Positions 320 through 25,123 of a stretch of 32,477 nucleotides of DNA are shown here, piece by piece. Source of the stretch: a virus. Its lineage: Duplodnaviria; Caudoviricetes. A program made the translations under genes and the position numbers. The DNA is taken from the IMG/VR virus record IMGVR_UViG_3300037462_000130, positions 1 to 32,477 of that record. One strand, 5' to 3'. Position 1 is the first letter of the stretch, and the number at the start of each line of letters is the position of its first letter. The notes beneath the pieces are model-generated. The model was not told the origin of the DNA and searched no databases. It saw only the letters and a list, made by a program, of their open reading frames with translations.

Positions 320-904
320 TTAGTCAGACATTCCTGGTAGATCTCGTCGTCTGAGTACCGCCGCATGACGCCAGTGTCCTTCCTCTTCCATCTTATCCGC
401 GAGGATAAGTTTACTTAAGTTATCTTTATACCAATAAGGTTCATTGATTAGATCAAAGTATATATGGTATAAAGTTGATTCAATCACCAGTATACCTTGA
501 ATTACTTTGTAAGACCATACAGAGTATGGTGATCCGATTTCAAGAATATGATTTCGGAAATTCCACTGCACTTCCCGACTGCCAGACTCACATTTTTGCT
601 CACCCGTCCATAAACACTGACCTGACCCGTCAACTTCATTTTCGTAATCAATCAGGTGAATGTTCTTGTAAACCGACATTTCTTGTTTTGGTTGTAACCA
701 TAAAGGTAATGGGTCGGGTGGTGACCGAGGCTCACCAAGATCAATCCCACTGTAGATTGCGGTTCCAGACCAATCGTACAACTGACCTTGAATCTCAACA
801 CCACCGCTGTAGTATTTCGGTTCAAAGCCTTCTTCACCTCGCTTCTTAGCTAAAGCTAAACGTGAGTGCCAGTTTTTGTACCAGAAATTCTCATCATCAA
901 GCAT
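320..904 (-). CDS. Left-array paralog with C-terminal TIGR02996-like helix (N-terminally truncated)
   Basis: Contains FWYKNWHSRLALAKK, GQCLWTGE and YFDLINEPYWYKDNLSKLILADKMEEEG, all shared with neighbours. ATG at 904; the ORF track uses TTG at 916. Confidence 0.8.
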   Translation of the reverse strand: MLDDENFWYKNWHSRLALAKKRGEEGFEPKYYSGGVEIQGQLYDWSGTAIYSGIDLGEPRSPPDPLPLWLQPKQEMSVYKNIHLIDYENEVDGSGQCLWTGEQKCESGSREVQWNFRNHILEIGSPYSVWSYKVIQGILVIESTLYHIYFDLINEPYWYKDNLSKLILADKMEEEGHWRHAAVLRRRDLPGMSD

Positions 905-1596
905 TTGAGTTTCCAATTAGTTGTGGTTTGTGACAACAATTGTTTGTGTTCAAACATGTAGCATGGGGTATTGAGATCCCAGTAGCGTAGATACCTACCA
1001 GTATTTTCGACTACCAAGCCGTCACTGACTACTAGCTTAACAGCACGCTCACCAATCTCTTGTTTGAATCCAGTCCAGACACATTTACCTGGACTTACAG
1101 TCTCGTTGCTGTAGAGGGAGCCTGAAAAGTCCTCTTCATGGATCAGATTCTTAGGGACCAACCAGAAGAGGTTTGGGTCACTATAACTGAACTCAAACTT
1201 CGGGGTGATACCGTTCACCGGTACATTTGACGGTATAAACTTTTCTTCAGACACACGGCCGTCAAATGTATACTTCCGCCAACCAACCTTGATATTGCAG
1301 GTACCCAGTTGGGGGTGTGTGAACAAGATCAGATCTTTGAGTAGTGGGTTGTTAGTTTCTAACTTAAATCGATTCCACCAACCGAAATACCAAAACCGCG
1401 GGTTTACCAAGTCGTAGTATTGAAGTTCACCTTCAGTGTACCTGACAAGGATGCCTTCTTTAACGAGTCTATCATTATTGCTGCGTATGACAATATCGTT
1501 AGTAGGTTGATGCGTCCACATATCGTAGTTGGTTTGACCGATCTTGTAGACTTCAGACGCCATTGAGTAGCTATCAACTGGGAATGACAGAATCAT
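856..1596 (-). CDS. Left-array paralog, divergent, lacking the LADKMEEEG tail
   Basis: 246 aa. YDMWTH, YYDLVNPRFWY and GKCVWTG motifs match the paralogs. Confidence 0.8.
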   Translation of the reverse strand: MILSFPVDSYSMASEVYKIGQTNYDMWTHQPTNDIVIRSNNDRLVKEGILVRYTEGELQYYDLVNPRFWYFGWWNRFKLETNNPLLKDLILFTHPQLGTCNIKVGWRKYTFDGRVSEEKFIPSNVPVNGITPKFEFSYSDPNLFWLVPKNLIHEEDFSGSLYSNETVSPGKCVWTGFKQEIGERAVKLVVSDGLVVENTGRYLRYWDLNTPCYMFEHKQLLSQTTTNWKLKCLMMRISGTKTGTHV

Positions 1597-2362
1597 TTGA
1601 GAATTTCCTTAGAATAGTGGCGAGTTTCCAGTTTCCTTCTTCTTCCATCTTGTCAGCTAAAACTAACCTACTCAACTCATCTTTGTACCAGTAGGGTTCG
1701 TTAATTGTATCATAGAATAGTAGACAATCTGTTGTTGAGAAAATCCTCATACAAGATGTATCGAGATAGTTGTACACACCGTAGTACCTACCATCAAGGT
1801 ACATATTTTGGTTAATTAAGTCTTTTGGTTCACACTTCTTCGGTTCCCCTGTCCAAATACACTTACCTGAAACTGATTCGTTATGTGTGTCTAGTGGGCG
1901 TCCATTAGTTTCAACAGTAATTAAATGCATTGGTTTCAACCAAGGAAGATCGGGTGGCGGCATTCGTGGGTAGAAACTTTTTGAGCTTCCGACACGTTGA
2001 CCTTCAGCGTTGTAGGTATCGTTACCGATTCGGATAACTAGATCGTCACCTTTCAATCCGAGTATTGGTGTGAAATTGTTTAGTAACGCCTTCAACCTTG
2101 GGTCGCTTGTCTTTTTAGCTAAAGCTAACCGGCTGTGCCAATTCCTATACCAGAACCCTTCATTGATGAGATCATAGTAGTCAATACCCTTGCCGTTCTT
2201 TACAACACGAATCCCATCAATTGTGGAATCACGGGTAAGTGCTCCAGGTGTCTTATCTGAAGTCTTGTGTGTCCAGAGGTCTAAAACGCTTAGACCAATC
2301 TCAAGGGTTTCAGACTCTGCTGATATGCTGCAGTTTCGCTCAAGTCGATAGATTAAGAACAT
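1574..2362 (-). CDS. Left-array paralog with C-terminal TIGR02996-like helix
   Basis: 262 aa. YYDLINEGFWYRNWHSRLALAKK, GKCIWTGE, YDTINEPYWYKDELSRLVLADKMEEEG. Confidence 0.85.
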   Translation of the reverse strand: MFLIYRLERNCSISAESETLEIGLSVLDLWTHKTSDKTPGALTRDSTIDGIRVVKNGKGIDYYDLINEGFWYRNWHSRLALAKKTSDPRLKALLNNFTPILGLKGDDLVIRIGNDTYNAEGQRVGSSKSFYPRMPPPDLPWLKPMHLITVETNGRPLDTHNESVSGKCIWTGEPKKCEPKDLINQNMYLDGRYYGVYNYLDTSCMRIFSTTDCLLFYDTINEPYWYKDELSRLVLADKMEEEGNWKLATILRKFSNDSVIPS

Positions 2363-2988
2363 GATTCCCTCAGTGAATTAGCGAGTTCCTGTTTACCTTC
2401 TTCTTCCATTTTATCCGCGAGGATAAGTTTACTAAAGTTATCTTTATACCAGTAGGGTTCGTTGACAGTGTCATAGCAAACTTGAAGACCATCGGCACAG
2501 TTAACTGTCATCAGACCGTCTTTAACCTTCACTTGGATCTGTTGGACACATCCATTGATGAACTCAAGGTGCCCATCCTTGACCAAGGCATTGCTTGGCC
2601 GCGTTGTTATATATTGTTTTGGTTTAAGCCAAATCATTTGGTCGAGGTCAACGGTCCGAGCGTCAACCAACTCATTTGTATATGGTTCACCATATACAGA
2701 GTAGAAACTATTTGCAATCTTAATGATTAGGAAGCCATCGTCGTTAATAACTTCAGGTGTAAATCGACTCAGTACAGATTTGAGATATTTATTATTGGTC
2801 TTCTTAGCTAAAGCTAAGCGGGTTTGCCAATTCTTATACCAGAAGCTTTCGTTGACGGTATCATAGAAGTAGACTTGGCTGTTCCTATATTCTACGCGAA
2901 GCCCATCAAACTGTTGAGGTGCTTCATAGACAGTTCCAGCAAGATGGAACCTTCCCGTGCTGTGGTATTGTAGGATTAAATTTGACAT
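2353..2988 (-). CDS. Left-array paralog with C-terminal TIGR02996-like helix
   Basis: 211 aa. YDTVNESFWYKNWQTRLALAKK and YDTVNEPYWYKDNFSKLILADKMEEEG. Confidence 0.85.
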   Translation of the reverse strand: MSNLILQYHSTGRFHLAGTVYEAPQQFDGLRVEYRNSQVYFYDTVNESFWYKNWQTRLALAKKTNNKYLKSVLSRFTPEVINDDGFLIIKIANSFYSVYGEPYTNELVDARTVDLDQMIWLKPKQYITTRPSNALVKDGHLEFINGCVQQIQVKVKDGLMTVNCADGLQVCYDTVNEPYWYKDNFSKLILADKMEEEGKQELANSLRESCS

Positions 2989-3091
2989 GACTTCCTCAAT
3001 AGATTAGTGATTCCCTGTTTACCTTCTTCTTCCATTTTATCTGCGAGGACAAGTTTACTAAAGTTATCCTTGTACCAATAGGGGTCATTGA
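2388..3091. repeat. Dispersed direct repeat encoding the C-terminal constant block (copies 2388-2465 and 3014-3091; related copies at about 378-447 and 1634-1703)
   Basis: Manual alignment gives 71/78 nt identical between 2388-2465 and 3014-3091, while flanking sequence is unalignable. Confidence 0.85.
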
Positions 3092-3881
3092 TCAGATCGA
3101 AGTAGAGATTGCACGTTTTATCTTTAACTGTCAGTAGACCATTGTCTTCTTCAGTGTCACAGACAAGCACTTGCTTGTCACAGTACGTGGAAACAACTAC
3201 TGGATCTTCATTGTGAGCTGGTTCACAATAGATGAACTGCATGGGACGTAACCACGGTAAAGACGGGACAGCTACATTTACTTCTTCATCCCACTCGCCA
3301 CCAACATATTGCCCGTAGAAATTGTAGACGTCGTTTGCCAGCTTGATATAATTCCACCCGTGCACTTTGACCAATCGTGGTGCAGAGTCCAATAGTAGAT
3401 TTTTGAGGTCTTCGTCTTGAGTCTTATTAGCTAAAGCTAAGCGGCTGTGCCAACTCTTATACCAGAAAGACTCATTGACCGTGTCGTATAACTTAAGTTT
3501 GTTTCCGTACCGTCGAACTTCGATATCAGGCGATTCTAAGAATAAGTAGTCACCTTCAATTGTTGCGATTAAGTTTTCACTGTTCAATGAATAGAAGTCT
3601 GGGAAAGATAACAGGTGTGCGATAGTTTCAGTTTTTGTTGACTTTCGGTTATATGCCTCAACTAGTGGGATGTCAGCATTGTAAAGTAGTAGATTCTTAT
3701 CACGGTAAATGAATACATCGTTATCACGGTTGGCTGGATAGTTAGCGGTAGTGGGATCACATGACCTATCAGTTTTAGTTAAAGTAAAGAGATCATAGAC
3801 TTCACCATCACATGAGATTGTTTCATTGGTCCAATCAACATAATCTGTTGATTGAAGTTTCAGTGTTAGGATTCGTACCAT
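2976..3881 (-). CDS. Left-array paralog with C-terminal TIGR02996-like helix
   Basis: 301 aa with GAGG RBS. VYDLFTLTKTD, YDTVNESFWYKSWHSRLALANK, YFDLINDPYWYKDNFSKLVLADKMEEEG. Confidence 0.85.
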   Translation of the reverse strand: MVRILTLKLQSTDYVDWTNETISCDGEVYDLFTLTKTDRSCDPTTANYPANRDNDVFIYRDKNLLLYNADIPLVEAYNRKSTKTETIAHLLSFPDFYSLNSENLIATIEGDYLFLESPDIEVRRYGNKLKLYDTVNESFWYKSWHSRLALANKTQDEDLKNLLLDSAPRLVKVHGWNYIKLANDVYNFYGQYVGGEWDEEVNVAVPSLPWLRPMQFIYCEPAHNEDPVVVSTYCDKQVLVCDTEEDNGLLTVKDKTCNLYFDLINDPYWYKDNFSKLVLADKMEEEGKQGITNLLRKSCQI

Positions 3882-3899
3882 GACGGCCTCAATAAGTTA

Positions 3900-3932
3900 A
3901 AATCGAACGGACAGTGTTTGTCCGTTCGATTT
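3900..3932. terminator. Intrinsic terminator-like hairpin
   Basis: AAATCGAACGGACA-gtgtt-TGTCCGTTCGATTT, a 14-bp perfect stem, intergenic, with a T-rich run on the - strand. Confidence 0.7.
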
Positions 3933-3957
3933 GGTTAACACTAGTTGGGATATTGCA

Positions 3958-4284
3958 TTACAGTGTATGTTCGCCATTAAAATTCAGCAGAATGTAATTC
4001 ACTTTCGGGTATTGGGATGGGACACACTTACGTTGGAATTCATCCAAAGGAGCGTCGCCGCCAGTAGAGTACACTAACTCTGTTGGGTACACTTCCACCA
4101 CGATCCCATCATTGTACACTTTTGGATAAAGTTCCTCAAAAGTTTCAGGTGCGATCTTGTTACATGCCTTGTCAGTTTTAGTTAAAGTCCACAGATCATA
4201 CACCGTACCATTGACATTCACCGTTTCATTTACAACGTCGATAAAATTGTGCGGGTGCATGGTAACCGTCAGAATCGTTTGCAT
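3958..4284 (-). CDS. Stand-alone copy of the array N-terminal module
   Basis: MQTILTVTMHPHNFIDVVNETVNVNGTVYDLWTLTKTDKAC aligns with the N-terminus of 2976..3881 (MVRILTLKLQSTDYVDWTNETISCDGEVYDLFTLTKTDRSC). Confidence 0.8.
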   Translation of the reverse strand: MQTILTVTMHPHNFIDVVNETVNVNGTVYDLWTLTKTDKACNKIAPETFEELYPKVYNDGIVVEVYPTELVYSTGGDAPLDEFQRKCVPSQYPKVNYILLNFNGEHTL

Positions 4285-4350
4285 GTTTTCAACTTTAGTT
4301 AAAAGTCATTGATTTTAGCAAAGTTAAAACGTGAACTGTGCCTACAATTC

Positions 4351-4387
4351 ATCTTATCAAGAAATTCCGCGTTTGTCAAGCGGAATT
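4351..4387 (-). promoter_or_regulatory. Sigma70-type promoter for the left array, with an inverted repeat flanking the -35
   Basis: On the - strand: TTGACA (4379-4374), 17-nt spacer, TAAGAT (4356-4351) with a TGn extended -10. AATTCCGC (4363-4370) and GCGGAATT (4380-4387) flank the -35. Confidence 0.8.
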
Positions 4388-4405
4388 CTAGATCGATTTA
4401 CTTTA

Positions 4406-4606
4406 CTAAATCGATTCAATTTTAACTAAGTTAATGGTTGCCAATTGAGCAACCAATTTCCAGTCTGGTTTAACTTTAGTTAATTCCTCTTGAATTCGCA
4501 ACTTGAAGTAATCTTGGTTGTCAAGATCCTTAGTCACTTTGTACAAGACATCACCAGCCTTCAACTTAAGTTTAGAGAGTCCGGCTTGGTATTCTTTAAG
4601 CGTCAT
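4406..4606 (-). CDS. Hypothetical protein
   Basis: 66-aa ORF overlapping the upstream gene in the same operon. Confidence 0.65.
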   Translation of the reverse strand: MTLKEYQAGLSKLKLKAGDVLYKVTKDLDNQDYFKLRIQEELTKVKPDWKLVAQLATINLVKIESI

Positions 4607-4814
4607 GTGCAGCAGCCTTACTCAAGAGTGATGCGGTTTTAACTAATTCGATGAGGTACTTCTTTTCAGCGTCACGCTTACGCTCCCACACACTGTGTTG
4701 GTAGCGAGCGTAATAGTCCATAGCGTCCTGCCAGATCGTCAGTAAAAGGAAGTCTGAGCCTTCTGGTTCCTTAGTTTTAGTTAGAAGGCACAGTTTAGAG
4801 ATTTCACTTATCAC
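4596..4814 (-). CDS. Hypothetical protein
   Basis: 72-aa helical ORF overlapping the end of the polymerase gene. Confidence 0.6.
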   Translation of the reverse strand: MISEISKLCLLTKTKEPEGSDFLLLTIWQDAMDYYARYQHSVWERKRDAEKKYLIELVKTASLLSKAAAHDA

Positions 4815-7044
4815 CCCAAGTCCCCAGTTTCTTCCAAGGTAGCGATATTAGCGGAATACGCTTGCGGTAACTTGCCACCACTTCTTCAACCACCTCTTTA
4901 ACTTTGGTGGTGACACTTGGATGTGTTGGACACATGATTTCGTCATGTATATTCAAGGGTTGTACCAACCAATTAGTATAACCGTGAGGTTGAATGTCCC
5001 ATATCTTACGTTGAACGTGTTTAGTGATTTGTGCTCCTGTTGATTGAATTTCATGGTTTTGAGCTGCACGCATCATTGAGGATTGGATCGAGAACGCCGC
5101 CCCATACAAGGCTGATTGTGTTGCTCCGAGTCCCGTCTGCAGTCTATCCCTTCGTTGAACCCTAACTTTAGCTGATTTCCATTCCTTGGGTGGAGATTGA
5201 GCCAGATCAAACAAGACCTTCATAACTTGGACTTCCAAGTCGAAATATCGCCTGAAACCAAGTAATGATGGTTGTGAGGTTTCTGGATCAGTCCAAGTGA
5301 TCCGTGTACCTAATCCCCGATCTTGTTTGAGTGCAGTGAATCGGTCAGTCACCCGTTTACGAGCTAAAGCTACTTGAGGGTAGCGTTGGAAGAATCGATT
5401 TGCTGCATTGATGGCGTCTTCAATTGGCACACCAAGTTTTGACTTAAGTGTTCGCTCGTCACCGCCGTACATCAAAGCGAAAACACCACGCTTACCAAGA
5501 TCATACATATCTAAGGGTTGACCCTTAGAGTCAGTAATATCTTTATAGCTTTTGTTAGGGAAGAGGGCTTGACCAAACAAAGCGTGAATCTTCTTCCCGG
5601 ACAGCAAGTCAAGACGAAGTTGCTTGTCATTGTAGACAGCATCAGCCAAAGCTACTTCGAATGATTCAAAGTCACCACCCCATAACTCAAGTTCACCGAA
5701 TGCCAATGGAAAACAAGATCGAACAAATGAGTCGTGTTTGATACCTTGAACATTGAGTTTGTCAGTACCAGACATACGGGATGATTTTGTCCCAATCACT
5801 TTGAGTGATGCGTGTAACCGCCTAGCAATAATCAGTTTATCATAGAGTTCAATTTCCTTTCGTGCTGACCGAGCATCGAGAACAGCCGCGGCCTTCTCTG
5901 CTACGGGATGTGATACAACGCCCGTTTGGTTACAGATATCACACGGACCAAACATACATGGATTGGTAGCTTTAGTTAGCTCAGTCAAGGCTTCCTTGTC
6001 TGTACTCTTGAGGAAGTGACGTTCAACTTCACTCAAGTCTTGGAATAGCCATTCCCGAACACGGTTAGGGGCAGTTGGAGCCTTTCGTTGTTTAGCTGCC
6101 CTTCTCAATTCCCTAATCTTGTCAATTTCAATTGAGAAGCCCCGCCAACGAACTGCTCCCACCATACAAGCCAACAATGAATCGTCATCATCGAAACTAA
6201 AGTCACCAAAGAACTTGAAGAGATCACGGGTATAGCGGACGTCATTCAAAGCATATTCCCGTGCTGGGTCGTTGTATTCCCAATGACGGATATGGAAATC
6301 GATGACGTTAGGCCAGGAACCGCCCCAAGCTCCAGGCTTACCACACGCGGCAGCGTATGGGGCATAGAGCTTCTCAACAGGATACAGCTTCTTGTCAATC
6401 TCAATTTCACTATAGTTGACCGTCTTCGACCCGAAGACAGCTTTAGTTAGCGACTTGAGGGCCGTTGAAGGTTTAAACTTCAATACCACGTCATCGAAGT
6501 CTTCACCTTCAATGATCGTCCACAGTGGACCCTCTTTCTTCCTATTCATGAATAGGATGTCGTCAAACTGGATAGCACCTTCTAGATGCTCAGCTAACTT
6601 ACCTGAGAGGGCTTTTGGTACGCGACGAATACGGATGTCTTTCCGGTTCATCGTTTTCTGAAACTTGCCTTTCCGACAGCTAAGCATAACGTCATGAGCA
6701 CCCAATGGTTTATAACATAAACCATCACGGGCAAGGTACTCGATTGCTCCCAACAAGTCAATATCATCCTGAGGAATAGCATCTGGACCTTCCCTGTCCA
6801 TGTAAACTTGAAACATAGTACGCATTTTACATAACTGGAACCAGTCAAAGGCTAGATTGAAGCCAACAACATTGGTTTGTGCAATTTTGTCTAGTAGATC
6901 TACTGATTCTTTAACTTTAGTTGTCCAGAAGTTGTGGATAACTGGATCACCGTCATCATACGCATATTGTATGATGACGGCGGGACCAGCCAAACCACAA
7001 GTTTCCGTATCAAGGTACGTAACGCTTGCGGTATCGGATTTCAT
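4804..7044 (-). CDS. polA: Family A DNA polymerase with 3'-5' exonuclease domain
   Basis: Exo I DTET, Exo II GFNLAFD, Exo III YALND; motif A GGDFESFE, motif B GKRGVFALMYG, motif C IHDEI. Start 7044 follows GAGGA; the track gives 7071. Confidence 0.92.
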   Translation of the reverse strand: MKSDTASVTYLDTETCGLAGPAVIIQYAYDDGDPVIHNFWTTKVKESVDLLDKIAQTNVVGFNLAFDWFQLCKMRTMFQVYMDREGPDAIPQDDIDLLGAIEYLARDGLCYKPLGAHDVMLSCRKGKFQKTMNRKDIRIRRVPKALSGKLAEHLEGAIQFDDILFMNRKKEGPLWTIIEGEDFDDVVLKFKPSTALKSLTKAVFGSKTVNYSEIEIDKKLYPVEKLYAPYAAACGKPGAWGGSWPNVIDFHIRHWEYNDPAREYALNDVRYTRDLFKFFGDFSFDDDDSLLACMVGAVRWRGFSIEIDKIRELRRAAKQRKAPTAPNRVREWLFQDLSEVERHFLKSTDKEALTELTKATNPCMFGPCDICNQTGVVSHPVAEKAAAVLDARSARKEIELYDKLIIARRLHASLKVIGTKSSRMSGTDKLNVQGIKHDSFVRSCFPLAFGELELWGGDFESFEVALADAVYNDKQLRLDLLSGKKIHALFGQALFPNKSYKDITDSKGQPLDMYDLGKRGVFALMYGGDERTLKSKLGVPIEDAINAANRFFQRYPQVALARKRVTDRFTALKQDRGLGTRITWTDPETSQPSLLGFRRYFDLEVQVMKVLFDLAQSPPKEWKSAKVRVQRRDRLQTGLGATQSALYGAAFSIQSSMMRAAQNHEIQSTGAQITKHVQRKIWDIQPHGYTNWLVQPLNIHDEIMCPTHPSVTTKVKEVVEEVVASYRKRIPLISLPWKKLGTWGDK

Positions 7045-7816
7045 GTTTGTCACATTCCTCTTCAATTGCATCTTCTAATGTTAGCGAACTCGTCTCACCA
7101 ATCACCCACGAGAGGCATTTGGAAGCGAATGGGTGTTTACCAAAGACTGTGTAGAGATGGACAATCAACTCTTCAACTTCAGTTGGAGAGCGATGTTTGG
7201 CCACACTTGGGCTAGGCGGTTCCAGCTTCTTGGGTTCTGGAACTTCTTCACCCTTCTCTTTAGCCTCTTTACACGCCTTGACAAAGGCATTGAGCTTGTC
7301 AGGATCGTCTACATACTTAGAGGCCTTAACAATCTGGGCCTGAGTGAACTCATTCGCAGCGGCCATCTGCTGAATGTTTTCAGGTAAAGTTAAAAGGCAC
7401 AGCCGGATTCGAACCCAGCCACGAGATTTGGCAAGGTCATCTGCAATCTCATTTTCACCTTTACCCGCCCGAATCAGAGATTGGACACCGCGAGCCTCTT
7501 GCAAGATATTGAGTTCTTGCCGTTGAATGTTCTCCGTCAAGTTGAGAATCGCTGCTTCCGCTTCTGTCATCTCACGAACGAAGCAGGGAACAGACGGTAA
7601 CCTTAGAAAGGTTGCACACATGAAGCGTCGATGCCCGGCCACCAAGTGGTAACGTCCATTTGGTAATGGCCGAACAGTGAGAGGGTCGCGGATACCATGC
7701 TTCTTGATATCTGCTTGAAGATCAGCAATTGTTGAGGGAAGAATCTCACCTCGACAATTAAAGTTAGAATCGGCGTAGATTTGTCCGATATCAATTTGCA
7801 CTACAGTATAGTTCAT
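7010..7816 (-). CDS. parB: ParB/RepB/Spo0J family protein with canonical CTPase motifs and HTH
   Basis: IKKHGIRDPLTVR, LVAGHRRF, LTENIQRQELN, HTH ENEIADDLAKSRGWVR. ATG at 7816 abuts the helicase stop. Confidence 0.9.
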   Translation of the reverse strand: MNYTVVQIDIGQIYADSNFNCRGEILPSTIADLQADIKKHGIRDPLTVRPLPNGRYHLVAGHRRFMCATFLRLPSVPCFVREMTEAEAAILNLTENIQRQELNILQEARGVQSLIRAGKGENEIADDLAKSRGWVRIRLCLLTLPENIQQMAAANEFTQAQIVKASKYVDDPDKLNAFVKACKEAKEKGEEVPEPKKLEPPSPSVAKHRSPTEVEELIVHLYTVFGKHPFASKCLSWVIGETSSLTLEDAIEEECDKHEIRYRKRYVP

Positions 7817-7817
7817 A

Positions 7818-13698: not shown

Positions 13699-13762
13699 GG
13701 CCTTAACTTAAGTTGGCCTTAACTTAAGTTGGCCTTAACTTAAGTTGGCCTTAACTTAAGTT
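13699..13762. repeat. Tandem repeat 4 x GGCCTTAACTTAAGTT (16 bp)
   Basis: Four exact copies at 13699, 13715, 13731 and 13747, each containing the palindrome AACTTAAGTT. Confidence 0.95.
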
Positions 13763-13826
13763 AAAACTTAAGTTTCTTAACTAAGTTAAGAATTGCCCAC
13801 ACACTTCTATTCGCTCACACAAATAT

Positions 13827-13855
13827 AGAGTATGGAAAGTAATTGAAAACGACAA
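13827..13855 (-). promoter_or_regulatory. Leftward sigma70-like promoter
   Basis: TTGTCG (13855-13850), 17 nt, TACTCT (13832-13827); hexamers identical to the rightward twin. Confidence 0.7.
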
Positions 13856-13939
13856 AGCTATTTTGGAATTACTTTCTACACTTACTTACAGATGCACACA
13901 CTCTTTATATAGGATGAAATTTATTTCCATCAATTCAGA

Positions 13940-13962
13940 ATTACTACACTTTATGTAGTAAT
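13940..13962. promoter_or_regulatory. Small inverted repeat between the divergent promoters (possible operator)
   Basis: ATTACTACA-cttta-TGTAGTAAT in the AT-rich core. Confidence 0.4.
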
Positions 13963-13977
13963 GTAATTTGTAATCGA

Positions 13978-14006
13978 TTGTCGTTTTCGACCGTCTTCCA
14001 TACTCT
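13978..14006 (+). promoter_or_regulatory. Rightward sigma70-like promoter
   Basis: TTGTCG (13978-83), 17 nt, TACTCT (14001-06). Confidence 0.7.
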
Positions 14007-14111
14007 ATATTAGTGTAGGCCATTGTGGGAGCGTAGGCGTGTCTTAACTAAGTTAATAAACTTAAGTTTTAACTTAACTTAAGTTTAACTTAAGTTTAAA
14101 TGAGAGGAGAG

Positions 14112-17300: not shown

Positions 17301-17432
17301 ATGGAATACATTTCATTAGTCTTAGCTGTTCCACTACTCACTGCTCTCATCCTTTTGGTTCGGACAGAGAACCGAATCATCAAACAATTGGAAGATACTA
17401 TCCACGATTTTGAAGAGAAGACTAAATCATGA
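17301..17432 (+). CDS. Small single-pass membrane protein (43 aa; absent from ORF track)
   Basis: GAGG RBS; MEYISLVLAVPLLTALILLVRTENRIIKQLEDTIHDFEEKTKS; ATGA overlap with the next gene. Confidence 0.7.
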   Translation: MEYISLVLAVPLLTALILLVRTENRIIKQLEDTIHDFEEKTKS

Positions 17433-18220
17433 TGTTTACAGATACCTCATACTTGACTTTCAGGCATAACACAGTAACAATCAATAGCAAACATATGTAT
17501 CATGGGATTCAAGATGTCTGCACAACACGAAAACATGCTTACCTGTTTACTGGTGAAGTAGCTTTAGTTTTCAGGGGAACTCGATGTATTTCATCGATTC
17601 ATGTCACACACTCAACAAAACATGCCGTGAGTGAACAAGGTGACATTCTATCCTTCAATCCATACGTTTGCCTTAATGGTAAACGTCTTGGGCCTAGCTG
17701 TGAATATGCTGCTTTCAAACCAAATGGTAGCCAATTCGTCACAGCTAGTCGAGCAGGATACTCTATCTACAATAAAGATGGTACACCTGTTGATTTCTGG
17801 CTGTGTGACGGCATAACTAATGTTGTCTGGGCCGATAAACTGTATCTACAAACTGGTAGGGATATCCTAACCTTACCTAATAAAACTTTACTTAAAAATC
17901 GGACAATCCTTGGGGTGACAGATGAAGGTTACATCGTAACTAGTATTGGTGAAATCATTGATCCACTCACAGACGACACATTATTGGCTGTCCGATACCG
18001 ATCAGCGGAATTGTTTTTCAGGGATAACCGATTTGCCACTAACACGCGAATTTACAGCTTCACAGAATGGGTATGTTTACAACTTGACATCAAACTTCCT
18101 CAAATTGATGGCCCAGCTTTAATTGTAGCTGACTATTTAGAAGAATACGGGCACAAGGGACACGAACAACTTCGAGAATTCATGAGGGTCTATGATAAAT
18201 ATATCCCCGGTACGACATAA
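17429..18220 (+). CDS. Beta-propeller-like protein with C-terminal TIGR02996-like helix
   Basis: WD40-like AAFKPNGSQFVTAS; C-terminal PALIVADYLEEYG...QLREF. Confidence 0.8.
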   Translation: MMFTDTSYLTFRHNTVTINSKHMYHGIQDVCTTRKHAYLFTGEVALVFRGTRCISSIHVTHSTKHAVSEQGDILSFNPYVCLNGKRLGPSCEYAAFKPNGSQFVTASRAGYSIYNKDGTPVDFWLCDGITNVVWADKLYLQTGRDILTLPNKTLLKNRTILGVTDEGYIVTSIGEIIDPLTDDTLLAVRYRSAELFFRDNRFATNTRIYSFTEWVCLQLDIKLPQIDGPALIVADYLEEYGHKGHEQLREFMRVYDKYIPGTT

Positions 18221-19042
18221 TGCTACCTTCCAATTCAATGATACTGTATCAACAATTACTTATGGTAATACCGCAGTCTTTTTAACTAAAAATAAGTGGC
18301 ACACTACCAAATATAACACACTCTCCAACTTTAACTGACACACTTCTTCCACGTTTCAGATGATGTGGTTTATGTCTATGACCTTGAACTCAAAGAAGTT
18401 GGTTTATTCTACACTCAACCAACTTATCACTATGTCGGACACAAAGACAAATTAGCTGTAATAACTTACACTGAATCAACAGTATATAATGCGAAGGGTA
18501 AGGTTCTTTGGACTGGTAGCGGTGGTAACCACGGTGTATTCTCACCGTGTGGTGAATACCTAGTTACTAATAGCTCGTTGGATGAGTGTACCGTCTCTAG
18601 TCGTGAAGGTAGTTATCACTTACCTTGTGTCGGTGTTTACCTTCACTGGGATGAACACTGGGGACTGGTAAATAACAACAATTTACCAATCCCTTCCTGG
18701 GTTACACTTGGGTTTACACCAAATGGAAACATTGTAACCCATAGTGGCCGTATCATTAACTTTAATGGTGACGAGGTGTTTCGAATTGTTGAACCAATTG
18801 CATTCGTACATAAGGACTGTGTTGCCTTACGCTTTGAAAATTCAATTAGAATTTACACTTACAATGAACTGATACTTCGTCACCTAAACATAACATCAGA
18901 CGTAAACCCAGACTGCCCACTGCTAATTTTAGCTGACTTCTTAGAGGAACGTGGCAGTGGACTCGGACCCTACAACCTAGTTGAGGATTCTCAACGTCTC
19001 CGTAACCTTTTGGAGCTTTATGAAAACGCTAAACCCAGGTGA
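18192..19042 (+). pseudogene. Beta-propeller-like paralog split by a frameshift near 18335
   Basis: RBS plus ATG at 18192 gives 48 aa ending at TGA 18336-38. The -1 frame opens at 18335 and runs to 19042 (VFSPCGEYLVT; CPLLILADFLEERG). The joined length of about 283 aa is close to the paralogs. Restart at GTG 18365 is possible. Confidence 0.6.
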
Positions 19043-19784
19043 AGCAATATACAGCTTTTCTTACACAGCAAAAGGCATTTACCTTTCAACCTACAGTGGC
19101 CTTCACTTCTGGGATAAGCACTATTTTCTTTCTTCCGCCGCATCAGAATATGCGGCATTCAGTTTCACGTGTGACTATGCAATAACCTATCATGGTACGA
19201 CTTACACTATCCGTGATGGTCTAACAAAAGTTACACAGCTTGTAAATCCTGGTGTTTTAGTTCAAGCTACAGGCTCTTGGTTAATCTTCAGACACAATGA
19301 AAACATCATTGCTATGAATCTAGATGGTAGGACAATATCAAGTGGGGATGCTAAGAGTGGTTTTGTCGCTGAGAGGCACAAACTTGAAGTAGTTATCGAT
19401 GGTGAAACATACTTATGGGATCTAGATGCTCAATCTTTAACTAAAATTAAACCACGGATGTACTGTATTTATGGTTGGACACCCAGTGGCAATATTATTG
19501 CGATGGATAGGACAATCCGGCACAAAACGACAGGGGATGTGCTTTTAACAATACCTCACTACTTACAACCAACACAATTACACTCAGGTAAGGTCATCCG
19601 TCAATTCTCCCGCACACTTGATATCTATGATTTCAATGAATGGTTGAATCTGTGTTTGGTAGAAGATTTACCAACTGATATCAACCATAACTGTCCACCG
19701 CTAATTTTAGCTGACTTCTTAGAGGAACGGGGTAGTGGTCTTGGACCCTACAGTCTAGTTGAGGATGCTCAACGTATCCGAAAC
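18912..19784. repeat. 95-bp direct repeat (18912-19006 and 19690-19784) encoding the constant C-terminal module
   Basis: 84/95 nt identical by manual alignment; the remainder of the two genes is barely alignable. Confidence 0.9.
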
Positions 19785-19811
19785 TTCATGGAGAAATATG
19801 ATGCCGAGTAG
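19020..19811 (+). CDS. Beta-propeller-like protein with C-terminal TIGR02996-like helix
   Basis: GGAG RBS and ATG 19020; GWTPSGNII; CPPLILADFLEERGSGLGPYSLVEDAQRIRNF. Confidence 0.8.
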   Translation: MKTLNPGEAIYSFSYTAKGIYLSTYSGLHFWDKHYFLSSAASEYAAFSFTCDYAITYHGTTYTIRDGLTKVTQLVNPGVLVQATGSWLIFRHNENIIAMNLDGRTISSGDAKSGFVAERHKLEVVIDGETYLWDLDAQSLTKIKPRMYCIYGWTPSGNIIAMDRTIRHKTTGDVLLTIPHYLQPTQLHSGKVIRQFSRTLDIYDFNEWLNLCLVEDLPTDINHNCPPLILADFLEERGSGLGPYSLVEDAQRIRNFMEKYDAE

Positions 19812-20430
19812 GAGCCACTTAGATGACTCAATTATGTGTTCGCTAGCGATTAAAACTAGCGGTAAAACACCATACAACAACTGCATCCTTGAAGTGGTAG
19901 CGTTACCATTTGACCGCAACTTCAAGTTAAACAGTTCCCGTGGAATCTTTACAGCTCTCAATCTGAAACCAACGATTCCATACAACGACGAGATGACAAT
20001 CTCACACGATGAGTACATTCAACGTAAGATCAATGGCGTTGACCCGATGTACTACGCAGACCTCTTTGAACAGTGGAAGGTCAAGTTAGGTTTACCTGAA
20101 ACTCATCCAATCCTAACTTTAACTTACAAACCATACACTTTTACTAACTTTATGACTGAGTGGTTAGGTTTCACGACATTCAATTTCGTATTCGGTGACA
20201 AGATTCGAGCAATTGATACCTTTGCTCAGATGTACAAAGATTGTACTTGGTATCGAGCCGATGACTTCCTCTTTAACCAGACGACTTATATGTCTTTAGC
20301 TAATGACTGTGGGGTGGAAGCGTCATTAAAGGACAGTACTTGGCAACGGGCAGTCAACTACATGCTAATCTACTGTAAGTTATTAGAGAAAGGTGCTCTT
20401 TATGAACGGACGGGTGCAATCAAACGGTAA
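19798..20430 (+). CDS. DEDDh/DnaQ-like exonuclease-fold protein lacking catalytic residues
   Basis: SLAIKTSGKTP...ILEVVAL corresponds to D.ETTG..P...I.EI; RAIDT; SLANDCGV; terminal helix IYCKLL. Confidence 0.65.
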   Translation: MMPSRSHLDDSIMCSLAIKTSGKTPYNNCILEVVALPFDRNFKLNSSRGIFTALNLKPTIPYNDEMTISHDEYIQRKINGVDPMYYADLFEQWKVKLGLPETHPILTLTYKPYTFTNFMTEWLGFTTFNFVFGDKIRAIDTFAQMYKDCTWYRADDFLFNQTTYMSLANDCGVEASLKDSTWQRAVNYMLIYCKLLEKGALYERTGAIKR

Positions 20431-20668
20431 TCTCAAGTTGGATGCGCCATTCCCTATTAGCTTGAACTTAGAATGCTGGACTGTAATTGATGAGACTACC
20501 TTGGAGCCTCGTTTTCCTAAGTGTATACATTATAAGGTAAACGAGGTTACATTGAAGTGTGGTAAGAAACGCTACACTTGGTGGTGCAATTACTTTAAGG
20601 GAAATACAAGTGTACGCTTCTGTAACAATTGTGAGGTGAGGTGTGAAGGAAAAGTTACCGAAAGCTAA
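20402..20668 (+). CDS. Cys-rich hypothetical protein, possible Zn binder
   Basis: Seven Cys including CNNC; overlaps neighbours in the operon. Confidence 0.65.
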   Translation: MNGRVQSNGNLKLDAPFPISLNLECWTVIDETTLEPRFPKCIHYKVNEVTLKCGKKRYTWWCNYFKGNTSVRFCNNCEVRCEGKVTES

Positions 20669-21059
20669 AGACGGCTTCTTTATGCAAGACTATCACCCTG
20701 AGAAGTTAGTACCACAGTATTGGGGTGAAGGTCAAACTGGAAACCCGTATGAAGAACCTGATAATAGGGAAGCGGATAAATTGATCCGTCCGCTAACTAT
20801 TGTTAGGTTCACTTACGATTCAACATCTGTATATGAACCTGATACATCTGCTTGCGAAGATGCTGTTATCGGTGCAACAGGTGATACTCTCACCAGTATG
20901 GTTTGCTGTGACTATACATATAACTACGACCCTGAAACTGGTGAGTTGTTAGGTTTTACTGTGAAAGGTACTGAAGTTGATCTTGATGAAGACGGTATAA
21001 TCATTGCCGTGGGTACAAGCAAAATTTATAGTGACTATGACCCGTGTAACCCAACCTAA
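20643..21059 (+). CDS. Acidic hypothetical protein
   Basis: 138 aa, about 20% D+E; GAGG RBS before the GTG start. Confidence 0.7.
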   Translation: MKEKLPKAKDGFFMQDYHPEKLVPQYWGEGQTGNPYEEPDNREADKLIRPLTIVRFTYDSTSVYEPDTSACEDAVIGATGDTLTSMVCCDYTYNYDPETGELLGFTVKGTEVDLDEDGIIIAVGTSKIYSDYDPCNPT

Positions 21060-21067
21060 GAGGTTTT

Positions 21068-21532
21068 ATGGACTGGGCAAACGATATCGGGCCTGAACTA
21101 GAGGCCCGATATAAAACAGACGAAATGCGGAAGAAGAGTAACTATTTTGATAACGTAGACACAGACGAGTTCTTGTCTTCTGTTACCCCTGTCCACGACT
21201 TGTTCTACGGGACTAAAGTTAGGCACTATCTAGTTCTATCTTATCCGTATGAGTGGCCACCACCAGGATACGATGACAACGTAGAGAAGATCAAGAAGTA
21301 CTATGACCAATTTGAACTCTACGAAGTTTTTGTTTACATTGACGGTGTAACTTTAGATACAACCAGTGACCCTGTGGTTACAGATTTTGTATCGAATGTA
21401 GAATCTATGTGTGAAGAGTTGAGTGAGTACGGCTTCCGGTATAACGGGGTCATTGAAAGCGAAATTGAAGCTGATTATTTCTTTGATGAAATCGATGAAT
21501 TTTATAAGGATGACTATGGAGAATCTCTTTAA
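21068..21532 (+). CDS. Highly acidic hypothetical protein
   Basis: 154 aa, about 37 D+E versus about 12 K+R; GAGG RBS. Confidence 0.75.
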   Translation: MDWANDIGPELEARYKTDEMRKKSNYFDNVDTDEFLSSVTPVHDLFYGTKVRHYLVLSYPYEWPPPGYDDNVEKIKKYYDQFELYEVFVYIDGVTLDTTSDPVVTDFVSNVESMCEELSEYGFRYNGVIESEIEADYFFDEIDEFYKDDYGESL

Positions 21533-21839
21533 TAGGTTTGATGATCTAAACATACTGGATCTCTATAGTGCCTGGTTAATTGAACGATCGTCCTCTGTGG
21601 ATGAAGGTAGGACACTTCGGACACTTGTAACTTTAGCTAATAAAGGTCAACCAGTCGTTTCAGTTCAATGCAACATCCGCTGGTTTGTGATCAATGTCAC
21701 AAAGGGTACACTGGAGATTAAGTTACAATGTGAAGGCGTCCGAGTAGAAGCCATGCCAGGGCACTGTGTTATCAACGGTGATGTCCAGACTTTCCGATTT
21801 GTTGTCCCGAGGTATCTACATGCCAAGCGACCACTATAG
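21516..21839 (+). CDS. Small protein with degenerate N-terminal TIGR02996-like domain
   Basis: AAGGA RBS; MENLFNRFDDLNILDLYSAWLIER...EGRTLRTLVTL. Confidence 0.7.
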   Translation: MENLFNRFDDLNILDLYSAWLIERSSSVDEGRTLRTLVTLANKGQPVVSVQCNIRWFVINVTKGTLEIKLQCEGVRVEAMPGHCVINGDVQTFRFVVPRYLHAKRPL

Positions 21840-22225
21840 GATGTTGAGAGCCATCTACCACGACCCATCACTTATCGGAATTTATGCCGATTGGTTAGAA
21901 GAACATGGAATGGACAATTCGCTTGAATTAGCTATTGCTGAACTGCTCAGTCTGGGATGCCCTAAAGTCTGGGTTGCTATCCGTCCAGATATCTTAACGG
22001 GTATATTTGACTGTGTGATTGAAACAGAGCAGTTTATTGTGTGACTACTCAACTCTAACTGCCAAGCGTGTAATGCCATATCAAGTGAAAGCCCCACTTG
22101 TATATGGACCTCACAATGTAAGTACAATTGACCCGTTATCTTACACTGACCACTCTGTGATTATATCAACCGAATCCCCAAACAGTCGAATTAAGGAAAT
22201 TCTTCAAAGTGGAAAATTCTATTGA
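21820..22225 (+). pseudogene. TIGR02996-like domain protein split by a frameshift in TGTGTG (22038-22043)
   Basis: The first part (LRAIYHDPSLIGIYADWLEEHG) stops at 22044. The continuation CDYSTLTAKR...VKAPLV lies in another frame and aligns with the C-half of paralog 22773..23231. Confidence 0.7.
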
Positions 22226-22472
22226 AAACTTGTTTATCCGACATATACGTGACCCGTGTATCCTGGAATTGTATGCTGAGTGGTTAGTAAAGAATAGAGT
22301 TGAAGAAGGCTTAAGTCTTCAACTTTTGCTAAAACTGTACCGTGAAGGTTACAAACCAACCTTCGCAGGTTTTTGCTTTGATGGCCTTCGAGCCTACGAA
22401 GGCCTTGGTGATTACACAATTGATCCACCATTCTACATCCCAAAATGTATTAAACTGATACCGGACTACTAA
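22209..22472 (+). CDS. Small protein with degenerate N-terminal TIGR02996-like domain
   Basis: IRDPCILELYAEWLVKN..EEGLSLQLLLKL, similar to 21516..21839. Confidence 0.7.
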   Translation: MENSIENLFIRHIRDPCILELYAEWLVKNRVEEGLSLQLLLKLYREGYKPTFAGFCFDGLRAYEGLGDYTIDPPFYIPKCIKLIPDY

Positions 22473-22473
22473 C

Positions 22474-22776
22474 ATGGAAAACTTCCTCAAAGCCAACCCT
22501 GACGATCCAGTACAACTGTTAATTTATGCTGATTGGCTCGAAGAACATGGTTGTCCATACGCTTCCCAATTCATTCGAGCGTCAGCCAAATTACTTTCAA
22601 AAGGTATCAAGGCCGTCTACTTTCACCGTGGCACAAAACTTGATCTGACAACTGGTATGTTTGATGTTGGAGAGGGTTTACCAATGTGTGATGAAGATGA
22701 TGTCATTTATGGCTTAGACGGTGAAGTGTCAAGTGACCCTGACTTGATTAACTTTTACTTTCCGAAGTGTCTATGA
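22474..22776 (+). CDS. TIGR02996 (repeat-companion) domain protein
   Basis: FLKANPDDPVQLLIYADWLEEHGCPYASQFIR closely follows the TIGR02996 pattern as recalled (PDD...RLVYADWL.E.G...RAEFIR). Confidence 0.85.
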   Translation: MENFLKANPDDPVQLLIYADWLEEHGCPYASQFIRASAKLLSKGIKAVYFHRGTKLDLTTGMFDVGEGLPMCDEDDVIYGLDGEVSSDPDLINFYFPKCL

Positions 22777-23231
22777 ATTTCTACACTCAATACAAACAAC
22801 CAGAACCATCTGCTTTCCTGAAAGCTGTGTGCGATGACCCATCGCTTATTGGAATCTATTCTGATTGGTTAGAGGAACATGGTTTTGATTTTGGATTTGA
22901 GCGAGCTATCTCTGAGCTTGTTAGCTTAGGTTACACAAGGGTCTGGCTCGCTCTTAAACCAGCAATCACTGTACATCTTATCACACTCGAAGTCTCGTTC
23001 TGGGATGTGGTGTGTTTAGATTTCACTACCTTACTTGCCACTTTAATGTCAGGTTGGGATGTGAATGGTCCGCTAGTTTGTGAGGATATTACAACTTGCG
23101 TTGGGACTATTGGTAATAAATCTAAATACAGTGTTTATTACAATCGCCCACTCAATAGAGGCCGTGTTTTCCAACTTCTAGAAACCCATTTTACGGACGC
23201 ACGATTATGGACACTAATGAGGCTGTTATGA
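22773..23231 (+). CDS. TIGR02996-like domain protein
   Basis: AFLKAVCDDPSLIGIYSDWLEEHG; paralog of 21820..22225 at both protein and DNA level. Confidence 0.8.
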   Translation: MNFYTQYKQPEPSAFLKAVCDDPSLIGIYSDWLEEHGFDFGFERAISELVSLGYTRVWLALKPAITVHLITLEVSFWDVVCLDFTTLLATLMSGWDVNGPLVCEDITTCVGTIGNKSKYSVYYNRPLNRGRVFQLLETHFTDARLWTLMRLL

Positions 23232-23560
23232 AAGCCTTATTCGACTTAATGCCAAATCGACTACACGTCATGCGAACCTGCGTTGATTTATTCCGCTTAC
23301 AGGGTAAGCACACTGAAGCCAACCAGATCAACGCATTACGCGTGCTTATCATTGACCACGGATTTGCAGAGATCAGTGACGGTGAATACGTTTACCAACT
23401 CTTAGCTTTGACTAAATACAAGAGTTTTGAGCCTTGCTGTGGTGCTCACCTTATTGATAAGCATTGGTATTACTCTGACGGTTTATGTAACTATCCTGAC
23501 GTTACTAGTGTCTTGAATACCCTTTACCACGGTCCACTGGATTTATTCGAGGAGATCTAA
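23207..23560 (+). CDS. Hypothetical protein, distant array member
   Basis: Helical hairpin PNRLHVMRTCVDLFRLQGKHTEANQI followed by YQLLALTK motif. Confidence 0.7.
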   Translation: MDTNEAVMKALFDLMPNRLHVMRTCVDLFRLQGKHTEANQINALRVLIIDHGFAEISDGEYVYQLLALTKYKSFEPCCGAHLIDKHWYYSDGLCNYPDVTSVLNTLYHGPLDLFEEI

Positions 23561-23790
23561 TGTGGCCTTCAATTAGCCCTCTGTAGTTGGCTTGAGAATG
23601 AGACAGCTGAAGATATCATCAAACAATTTGAAGCTCTTTACACCCTAACCACCAATTGAAAACCTAGTGTGTACTAACTAAAGTTACGGCACAGTGAACG
23701 TGCCTGAGATTATCGGTAATCATGTCCGATGCTGGTGAGGAAATGCAAACACTGACACATAACAGCCCATTAAATCTGTTTATGGAGGTT
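23560..23790 (+). pseudogene. Probable decayed array member
   Basis: TAATG-coupled start gives MWPSISPL-stop. An adjacent frame gives LCSWLENETAEDIIKQFEALYTL, resembling the array helix, followed by further stops. Confidence 0.4.
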
Positions 23791-23792
23791 CC

Positions 23793-24341
23793 ATGCTCTT
23801 AACTTTAATTAACGGCGGTGTCACAACAATTGATGATCAGTCATTTGTCTACAACCTTCACACACTGACGAAGAGTCCCAGTGAAGGTCACCCGGCAAGT
23901 GTAGTCCGCGTTGGATCGCAGTGGACTACCACTAAGTTTGAACTGAAACAGCCAACAATCGACCTCTTAGATGCCGTGTATCGGCAACGTGACTTTTATT
24001 TCACACCGATTGCAGGCGATCAATTCTTTAAGAAGATGATTATCGGGCGTCCTTACATGCTAAAGGCGTACTACAAATACTTAAAAGCTAACGGTCGTGA
24101 ACACCGCGGTTACCGTGCCCTTTACATGTTGTTGGAAGGCTACGGACTTGATAGTGTTACTTTGGTTGCGAGTGGCACACGATTTCGTTATTACTTCTCA
24201 ACTTTAACTAAAGTAGTCGCAAAAACTGTGACCTATGAGCCTGTGTGGGACAAAGAGTGGGATATTGACAACGAGAAAGTCACGATACTACTAGACGCCC
24301 TATTCTTCAAACATCCTATTACTTGGAAGGACCAATCATGA
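23793..24341 (+). CDS. Array protein (YDLxTLxK modules plus helical module)
   Basis: GGAGG RBS; YNLHTLTK, GRPYMLKAYYKYLKANG, YYFSTLTK, LFFKHPITW; paralog of the next gene. Confidence 0.8.
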   Translation: MLLTLINGGVTTIDDQSFVYNLHTLTKSPSEGHPASVVRVGSQWTTTKFELKQPTIDLLDAVYRQRDFYFTPIAGDQFFKKMIIGRPYMLKAYYKYLKANGREHRGYRALYMLLEGYGLDSVTLVASGTRFRYYFSTLTKVVAKTVTYEPVWDKEWDIDNEKVTILLDALFFKHPITWKDQS

Positions 24342-25123
24342 TTTCTGAATTGCTGTCTCTTGGAATCACCGTAATCTGTGACCAGAATACAGCGTATGAT
24401 CTACGGACGCTATCTAAGTGTCGCTTAGACAAAGGCTCTTATGATGCCACTTTGATCGGTAACACTTGGTGGTGTGATGAATATAAGTTACCGCATAACA
24501 TGCAAGACAAACTCAATGAAGTGTATACCAAACGTGATGCAATCTTCATGACAGTTGAGGATCGCATCAAGAAATTGATTAGTAAAGGAATTCGACGCTT
24601 CAGTGACTCAACCGCAACATACGACTTAACCACCCGCTTCAAAGAACCAGTGACACCGAAGCAATCGGATGTCTCGAAAGTCGATGACCAGTGGGTATCA
24701 ACTAAAATTACATTAGATAAAGAAGACGCAACAAATTTGAGCGTTGTGTACAACAATCAGTTAGAGTTGTTCTCTGTCTTCAACCCTCATGTGTTCTTTG
24801 AGAAGATGTTACCTGGTCGACCATACATGATTAAGGCGTATTGTAAGTACCTTAACCAATGCGGTCACACCTATGAAGGCTATCAGTCACTCTATAGGTT
24901 ACTTGAGTTAATGTGTGTGAGTAGCGTAACTGTCATTAAAGATGGTAAACGCACGCGGTACAACCTCTTACTTTTAATCAAAGAGGGTAGTTCAGACTCA
25001 CGTTTTGAGCCAATTTGGTGTGATGGACAGTGGGTCAACCCCAACGGTGATTTGTTAAGCCCACTGACCACCAAAGACTTAGATATACTCTTCTTCAAAC
25101 ACCCTATTGCGTGGGGAGACTAA
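24338..25123 (+). CDS. Array protein with duplicated N-terminal module
   Basis: YDLRTLSK and YDLTTRFK repeats, GRPYMIKAYCKYLNQCG, LFFKHPIAW; ATGA overlap at 24338. Confidence 0.8.
   Translation: MISELLSLGITVICDQNTAYDLRTLSKCRLDKGSYDATLIGNTWWCDEYKLPHNMQDKLNEVYTKRDAIFMTVEDRIKKLISKGIRRFSDSTATYDLTTRFKEPVTPKQSDVSKVDDQWVSTKITLDKEDATNLSVVYNNQLELFSVFNPHVFFEKMLPGRPYMIKAYCKYLNQCGHTYEGYQSLYRLLELMCVSSVTVIKDGKRTRYNLLLLIKEGSSDSRFEPIWCDGQWVNPNGDLLSPLTTKDLDILFFKHPIAWGD

Follow-up and report, generated by a model that had tools for sequence, protein, structure and literature searches.

Two gene arrays on opposite strands of an uncultured phage genome (Caudoviricetes) encode ten proteins that share one short helical module related to TIGR02996, a domain that is among the larger function-unknown expansions in planctomycetes. 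The window considered in the current analysis is the whole virus record IMGVR_UViG_3300037462_000130 (positions 1-32,477), which occurs in one wetland metagenome run and is about 43% complete. The module is conserved in sequence and fold, has been shuffled to either end of three unrelated bodies, recurs in other phages and, in Planctomycetia, is co-distributed with the predicted FtsH ternary system, almost only alongside which it has been multiplied in bacteria. We tentatively suggest that this host-derived module, which resembles tetratricopeptide repeats (TPR), may act as a handle by which proteins dock on the soluble FtsH-type AAA+ protease of that system, a reading that we regard as a serious possibility and hold with reserve. 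What is new here is a candidate host partner for TIGR02996; the module family itself recurs in phages.

Module copies in the two arrays

A six-frame scan of the window with the pattern [AS]D[WYFK][LM]xExG has identified exactly ten copies, every one of them within a predicted gene; in 200 shuffles of the 40 window proteins the mean is 0.015 copies and the maximum 1. The scan bears out an earlier interpretation of the letters made without database searches (the sequence-only reading), which had described two arrays on opposite strands sharing one helical motif and had assigned the strands correctly. That reading had also counted about 17 proteins, with 12 clear and 5 weak copies, and this number has to be lowered to ten clear and two degenerate copies, since only those in 22209-22472 and 21423-21839 among the weak ones survive a shuffle test with hhalign (20.2 for the pair against a shuffle maximum of 12.0, none of 30 shuffles scoring as high). 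The module is not supported in the pair 23793-24341 and 24323-25123, 19 of 30 shuffles being equally good and no profile match being found. The same test leaves 23207-23560 unsupported (3 of 30 shuffles as good), as well as 856-1596 and the genes at 4406, 4596, 19759, 20643 and 21068.

The left array encodes family A, which comprises four genes with a C-terminal ADKMEEEG core and two motif-less paralogs. The host-derived hidden Markov model (HMM) cited for two of them is described below.

320-916, minus strand: family A protein with a shortened 5' end (194 aa in the database call) and a C-terminal module whose core ADKMEEEG lies at 377-400; 8.7 bits with the host-derived HMM (shuffle maximum 4.9)
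856-1596, minus strand: family A paralog without the ADKMEEEG core
1574-2362, minus strand: family A protein, orphan, with an internally duplicated beta/alpha unit and a C-terminal module, core at 1634-1657; host-derived HMM 9.0 bits
2353-2988, minus strand: family A protein, C-terminal module, core at 2395-2418
2976-3881, minus strand: family A protein with an N-terminal extension, C-terminal module, core at 3021-3044
3958-4284, minus strand: paralog of the N-terminal part of 2976-3881, without module (blastp 35% over 92 aa, E 2e-10)

The right array opens with family B, in which three clear copies with the core ADYLEEYG or ADFLEERG are again C-terminal.

17429-18220, plus strand: family B propeller-like protein, C-terminal module, core ADYLEEYG at 18128-18151; TIGR02996 11.5 bits, under the cut-off
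18365-19042, plus strand: family B propeller-like protein, C-terminal module, core ADFLEERG at 18932-18955
18981-19811, plus strand: family B beta-propeller-like protein, start likely at residue 14, C-terminal module, core ADFLEERG at 19710-19733

The description of these proteins as propeller-like, first made in the sequence-only reading, is backed for 18981-19811 by ESM Atlas structure rows, with TM scores of 0.57-0.62 to DUF5711 and to IFT122/WD40 propellers. An open stretch in another frame (18220-18364), immediately 5' of 18365, could represent the 5' portion of that family B gene after a frameshift. Its sequence agrees with one DNA run, and the agreement is not independent because that run may itself be the source of the window.

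Family C consists of short proteins of 67-150 aa, in which three clear copies with the core ADWLEEHG or SDWLEEHG are N-terminal. In all, the module is N-terminal in three and C-terminal in seven of the ten copies.

21423-21839, plus strand: degenerate family C copy (LDLYSAWLIERS), start likely near 21516; hhalign 17.5 against a shuffle maximum of 12.3, 42% over 36 aa to 22209
21766-22044, plus strand: family C small protein, N-terminal module, core ADWLEEHG at 21886-21909; TIGR02996 E 0.0012, under the cut-off
22209-22472, plus strand: degenerate family C copy (LELYAEWLVKNR), assigned by paralogy and hhalign
22474-22776, plus strand: family C small protein with a bona fide TIGR02996 domain at residues 5-39, core at 22528-22551; 40 bits, helices 2-7, 12-24 and 28-42
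22767-23231, plus strand: family C protein, N-terminal module, core SDWLEEHG at 22860-22883; TIGR02996 E 0.0064, under the cut-off

Identity and fold of the module

The curated cut-off of TIGR02996 (rpt_mate_G_obs) is 29.05 bits, and only 22474-22776 exceeds it (40 bits, E 2.4e-10). Among the other nine clear copies, all under the cut-off, three match weakly (21766, 22767 and 17429) and six give no match. Profiles were also compared: against a TIGR02996 profile of 94 outside sequences, built without the window row, hhalign scores are 29.7 for class A (P 64%), 34.2 for class B (82%) and 45.6 for the class C pair (96%). All three classes align in register, and none of 30 column shuffles reaches the score of any of them. 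Because most of the 94 sequences were found by an ADWL[DE]E-type DNA pattern, the test can count as independent for classes A and B only. The TIGR02996 likeness proposed in the sequence-only reading is thus upheld by the one copy that passes the cut-off and by the common register of the classes, but it does not extend to a curated assignment of the remaining nine.

An HMM of 62 canonical proteins finds all ten copies at 15.6-44.7 bits and nothing else above 0, a test that is partly circular because these proteins were retrieved via a window-seeded profile. The HMM built from 24 curated-model hits in bacterial genomes recovers eight of the ten, with only 1574 and 320 from family A (about 9 bits, shuffle maximum 4.9), and one of 99 viral hits recovers six and misses family A. 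Family A is the weakest class, and on these sequence profiles it is still supported as TIGR02996-related.

AlphaFold2 applied to 95 module sequences predicts a self-contained three-helix unit (pLDDT 89.7), in keeping with the earlier view of the motif as a module. The best VIA match is a designed TPR protein (Z 7.4, rmsd 1.6 over 45 residues), a Z under the bar of the tool for helical units; most of the top VIA rows are TPR proteins, and 16 of the 95 sequences match TPR_15 weakly. The models therefore suggest a fold of three TPR-like helices, a likeness that is not decisive for so small a unit. Each module-bearing protein of the window has one such unit and no tandem array of the TPR type. No Foldseek match was found at E<=0.001 and no sequence relative of the module in the PDB. 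The most conserved columns among the 95 sequences include the charged residues D20, E24 and R35.

The family A module belongs to a pair of internal repeats, of which only the module has the acidic core. The AlphaFold2 model of this family is weak (pLDDT 55), with the module stretch modelled as two terminal helices at pLDDT about 82; it has no BFVD match at E<=0.001 and a best VIA Z of 3.2, which in view of the weak model is no sign of a new fold.

Divergence of module and body

The bodies of families A, B and C give no blastp match between families. The partner domains had been described as highly divergent, and this is true between families but not within them, where the bodies are paralogs at 24-39% identity. 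Among these paralogs the pooled non-synonymous divergence (pN) of module and rest is 0.20 and 0.46 in A, 0.28 and 0.54 in B, and 0.30 and 0.53 in C, so that in all three families non-synonymous change in the module is at about half the level seen in the body. The synonymous divergence (pS) is 0.64-0.76, near saturation and similar in module and body. These substitution patterns indicate that a constant module on a variable body is under selection, and the pattern of constant helix and variable body, as first proposed, is borne out.

The bodies have few relatives. No homolog of family A was found outside the window in the searches made, none of family B in an IMG/VR search, and none of near-equal length for 22474; GenBank phages yielded no homolog of the array bodies, and no array protein matches a leucine-rich repeat (LRR). 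In tblastn searches of the array genes against 199 loci centred on relatives of the phage DNA polymerase (119 and 80), only 19759-20430 was matched, in 3 of the 119 and in none of the 80. With a reach of 10 kb from the polymerase, these loci survey the site of the left array more fully than the site of the right array. The gene 19759-20430 is the sole array gene with homologs in related phages; it carries no module and matches no family.

TIGR02996 in other phages

A DNA pattern for ADWL[DE]E[HRNQKS]G was run over 43 of the 64 parts of IMG/VR, so that the records obtained are selected by motif, and some are near-duplicates (G354/G342, G359/G372). The pattern has identified 126 loci, of which 96 match the HMM. 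When 80 distinct records (89 loci) were searched in full, 75 matched, with at least two matches in 44 and at least five in 13. The 44 motif-selected records do not support uniqueness of such arrays to the present phage; judged from these sequences, multi-copy TIGR02996 is common in uncultured phages. The 164-kb complete virus record G342 has 18 open reading frames (ORFs) of TIGR02996 type, four of them with C-terminal modules, G377 has a tandem array of such ORFs, and G343 has seven, including a 1695-aa protein with four copies (L217:2665-7749). Polyproteins of up to 3,700 aa with 2-9 copies (P0006-P0034) have also been identified, viral origin being established for the G343 protein alone. Many of the copies in the giant polyproteins are preceded by short R/K-F/M/Y-S/A words, which are candidate processing sites.

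Among relatives of the phage polymerase in IMG/VR, one plausible TIGR02996-like head was found in 94 records (44, and 50 of 51 further), most of them incomplete. This copy (G023, L046:3-1004) is a head on a host-type protein with an FGE-sulfatase domain. Since the polymerase kin mostly lack the module, the arrays look like a gain of this phage lineage. Two further records, G018 and G108 (the latter with internal stops), were rejected as chance matches, as was Myxococcus phage Mx8 p22 (tblastn E 6, no TIGR02996 match). Plasmids gave no match to a 42-aa query. A literature search, covering mainly non-subscription sources, found no paper on TIGR02996, on 'repeat-companion' domains in Planctomycetes or on such phage arrays.

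Distribution in planctomycetes and the FtsH ternary system

Relatives of the phage polymerase are numerous (39-53% identity), and 17 of the 23 loci in species-representative genomes, including all eight contigs longer than 100 kb, lie in records titled Planctomycetota. On this ground the host phylum is taken as Planctomycetota and the phage probably infects a planctomycete; a TIGR02996-rich, Gemmata-like host is inferred.

We surveyed 301 genomes of Planctomycetia (the class of G055), many of them incomplete metagenome-assembled genomes. TIGR02996 is present in 82 of them, and 19 genomes, to judge by the name of the model probably Gemmataceae, have at least 22 copies. LRRs are carried by 19 of the 31 top-scoring bacterial TIGR02996 proteins, an arrangement of constant head and variable repeat body. 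Host copies are also fused to AbiEii-like and DUF1963 domains (L142, L135, L144).

The simple radical-SAM type of FtsH ternary system is a predicted conflict system, and thus a predicted immune machine (Kaur et al. 2020, PMC7159879). Its usual protease operon in the genomes analysed encodes a radical SAM protein, fvmX6, fvmX5, an FtsH-like AAA+/M41 protease, an fvmX3-analog and fvmX7 twice, and the fvmX5 cluster is present at 18 of 21 protease loci. With the N-terminal 240 residues of the protease of G297 as query, the FtsH-like N-terminal domain has been found in 58 of the 301 genomes, and 55 of these 58 are also positive for TIGR02996 (Fisher p 9e-36, kinship ignored). Of the 48 genomes with at least four copies of TIGR02996, 46 have the protease and the remaining two have fvmX7.

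The association is also seen on a finer scale. In the family of G243 the protease occurs in four of 41 genomes, G297 being one of them, and these are the four strongest TIGR02996 matches; none of the 33 TIGR02996-negative genomes has it. The four are scattered (four changes, with moderate support values) on a RecA tree that covers 37 of these genomes. In G297 a soluble AAA+/M41 protease gene is directly preceded, on the same strand, by four TIGR02996 genes, which occupy the usual position of fvmX5. The 21 genomes that hold relatives of the phage polymerase lack the protease altogether, and one of them has TIGR02996. Protease genes without conserved operon genes nearby have been identified at L471 (G243), L480 (G541) and L149 (G297), all in TIGR02996-positive genomes. 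As a separate observation, at 12 of 21 loci (L461-L479) a gene for RNA 3'-phosphate cyclase lies ahead of the FtsH ternary operon.

TIGR02996 was found on none of the conserved genes of the system in the 21 loci. It is not named in the main text or in two supplementary files of PMC7159879; NEFF1 was not found there either, so that the source-data tables may lie outside these files. On the FtsH ternary system itself, the literature search returned only this predicting paper of 2020. The ubiquitin-like subtype (E1/E2/RING/JAB) was dropped as partner because the operons belong to the simple radical-SAM type and the surrounding 10 kb or so showed no recognisable MoxR cluster.

Possible function and alternative explanations

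The sequence-only reading had postulated a host machine that binds the helix. A candidate can now be named from phyletic co-occurrence, the FtsH ternary system, but binding to it, like the anti-defence activity of the phage proteins, is only inferred. The distribution suggests that the module would dock on this machine and, most simply, on its protease, because in G243, G541 and G297 this enzyme is encoded with no conserved operon genes nearby. The host TIGR02996-LRR proteins would be its normal substrate receptors, the phage bodies would bind host targets, and each phage protein could serve either to bring in a host target, as an adaptor, or to occupy the docking site, as a decoy. The propeller family B looks adaptor-like and family C, with its 67-150 aa, decoy-like.

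Docking is supported because the module is conserved and the bodies diverge with synonymous sites near saturation, because the module stands at either terminus of unrelated folds (here, and in G342 with four C-terminal of 18), and because the host pattern is a constant head on an LRR body (19 of 31). It is further supported by the co-occurrence of TIGR02996 and protease, including the joint scatter in four of 41 genomes, by the adjacency in G297, and because genomes with polymerase relatives and without protease are nearly all without TIGR02996, the phage kin likewise mostly lacking the module. In a broader form, which we consider doubtful, TIGR02996 would be a bacterial counterpart of the F-box, a universal head through which substrates bound by dozens of LRR receptors would reach the soluble FtsH of the ternary system, and planctomycete phages would have captured it many times for receptors or decoys of their own, in parallel to the poxvirus ankyrin/F-box families. 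The ten genes here, with C-terminal fusions to a propeller and to an orphan fold among them, would be one such set.

Several observations weigh against docking on the FtsH ternary machine. Only nine of the 34 genomes with 1-3 TIGR02996 copies have the protease and 25 lack it, and TIGR02996 does not exceed the cut-off in three of the genomes with protease (G516, G587, and G635 with one weak hit). TIGR02996 lies within about 10 kb of the protease at one of 21 loci only. The class-level p-value is inflated because most double-positive genomes probably belong to one lineage, and co-occurrence leaves the binding subunit and the directness of the link unspecified. Families A and B have drifted from the consensus, with W replaced by K or by F/Y, and family A scores 0-9 bits on HMMs without its own sequences as seeds; with such a core and such scores it may no longer bind the partner of TIGR02996. 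In the polymerase tree the phage sits on a long branch with no labelled host nearby.

The low-copy genomes mostly without protease (25 of 34) and the single adjacent locus (1 of 21) would agree with the module docking on some other lineage-typical machine, such as a chaperone, another protease, RNA polymerase or a membrane complex, with the FtsH ternary system merely co-distributed, and TPR-like folds do have many binding partners. We nevertheless judge this quite unlikely, as the joint scatter in four of 41 genomes, with neighbours negative or weak-only, is hard to explain by lineage alone. An unlikely explanation too is a homotypic adaptor similar to effector-associated domains (EAD) and Death-like domains, the phage copies being dominant-negative decoys of host TIGR02996-LRR sensors and FtsH being downstream or co-inherited. 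A small alpha-helical terminal domain with many partners, in lineages with ternary conflict systems, follows the EAD principle as set out in PMC8195603, and polyproteins with up to nine TIGR02996 copies and weak LisH-type matches in one of the 95 module sequences and in P0027 point the same way. EADs are, however, described as having copies on both the core and the effector genes of a single neighbourhood (PMC7159879), whereas TIGR02996 is on no core gene in 21 loci and its host partners are mostly LRRs, not enzymes.

It is improbable that the module is a structural cap, an element of oligomerisation or stability, or a turnover tag without host target, the arrays then being tandem accessory duplications. 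The tandem paralogs within each family, some truncated or broken (3958, 856, 18220-18364), and the second family A repeat without acidic core would agree with this; D-x-x-x-E-x-G has, however, persisted on three folds that are not related to one another, whichever terminus carries it, and across many unrelated phages, and the most conserved columns include the charged D20, E24 and R35. A signal for virion packaging or ejection, for which the virus-encoded 1695-aa protein with four copies (L217) might speak, is highly improbable, as the arrays here flank the replication block and not the tail genes, and the domain is abundant in bacterial chromosomes.

If docking on the FtsH ternary machine is true, it would point to a modular, receptor-based pathway of proteolysis in bacteria and to a counter-strategy that phages have derived from this pathway; a portable tag for targeted degradation might also follow. 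The link between TIGR02996 and the FtsH ternary system makes both open to direct test, with one small domain, one soluble protease and few subunits.

Relation to known systems

The window proteins resemble known TIGR02996 proteins in the one copy over the cut-off, the common register of the three classes and the three-helix unit. They differ in that the module of host proteins usually stands at the N-terminus, ahead of LRRs (19 of 31), whereas seven of ten phage copies are C-terminal, on a propeller or orphan fold and with a drifted core. The operon distribution of the FtsH ternary system (Pfam fvmX3-analog, X5, X6 and X7; PMC7159879) matches that of host TIGR02996, but the system itself is only predicted and no component of it was found in the phage window, where none of the 40 proteins has a Pfam match to FtsH-like AAA+/M41, fvmX, MoxR or vWA genes, the record being about 43% complete.

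The poxvirus ankyrin/F-box (PRANC) substrate adaptors (PMC9414399, PMC4353913) offer a parallel to the proposed logic, being a multigene family of viruses in which a variable recognition body is joined to a constant terminal docking motif taken from the host. The phage module differs in its bacterial host and has no sequence link to the F-box; none of the 95 module sequences has a Pfam match to F-box or SOCS-box at E<=0.05. Gp53 of phage SPO1, described in PMC6873191 as an adaptor-like protein of ClpCP, is a precedent for a phage protein modulating a host AAA+ protease as an adaptor, but it is a single protein acting on ClpCP, unlike the shuffled modular family with an FtsH-type candidate considered here. 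EAD and bacterial Death-like domains (PMC8195603) are likewise small helical terminal adaptors of lineages rich in conflict systems; TIGR02996 differs in its TPR-like three-helix unit and is rarely in the operon of the system (1 of 21 loci), on no core gene.

Other features of the window

The window also encodes a family A DNA polymerase, two ParB-like proteins, an SNF2 helicase, Dam, ThyX, a DHH protein, a primase, a dNMP kinase and tail genes. The replication block sits between the left and right arrays, and the tail genes are not flanked by them. No RNA run is listed as containing the window sequence. The promoter candidate below is the best-ranked of its kind, though sigma-70-like sites show no excess in the window (12 observed, 11.6 by chance).

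1-250, minus strand: open frame reminiscent of a helix-turn-helix protein, judged by eye and cut by the contig end
4351-4379, minus strand: sigma-70-like promoter candidate TTGACA-17-TAAGAT, just upstream of the left array
23793-25123, plus strand: paralog pair 23793-24341 and 24323-25123, 38% identity, with a duplicated N-terminal unit in 24323
13699-14096, in the interval that separates the divergently oriented genes for a ParB-like protein and the primase: a 16-bp unit (GGCCTTAACTTAAGTT) present three times in tandem, with an inverted repeat of 119 bp, origin- or parS-like

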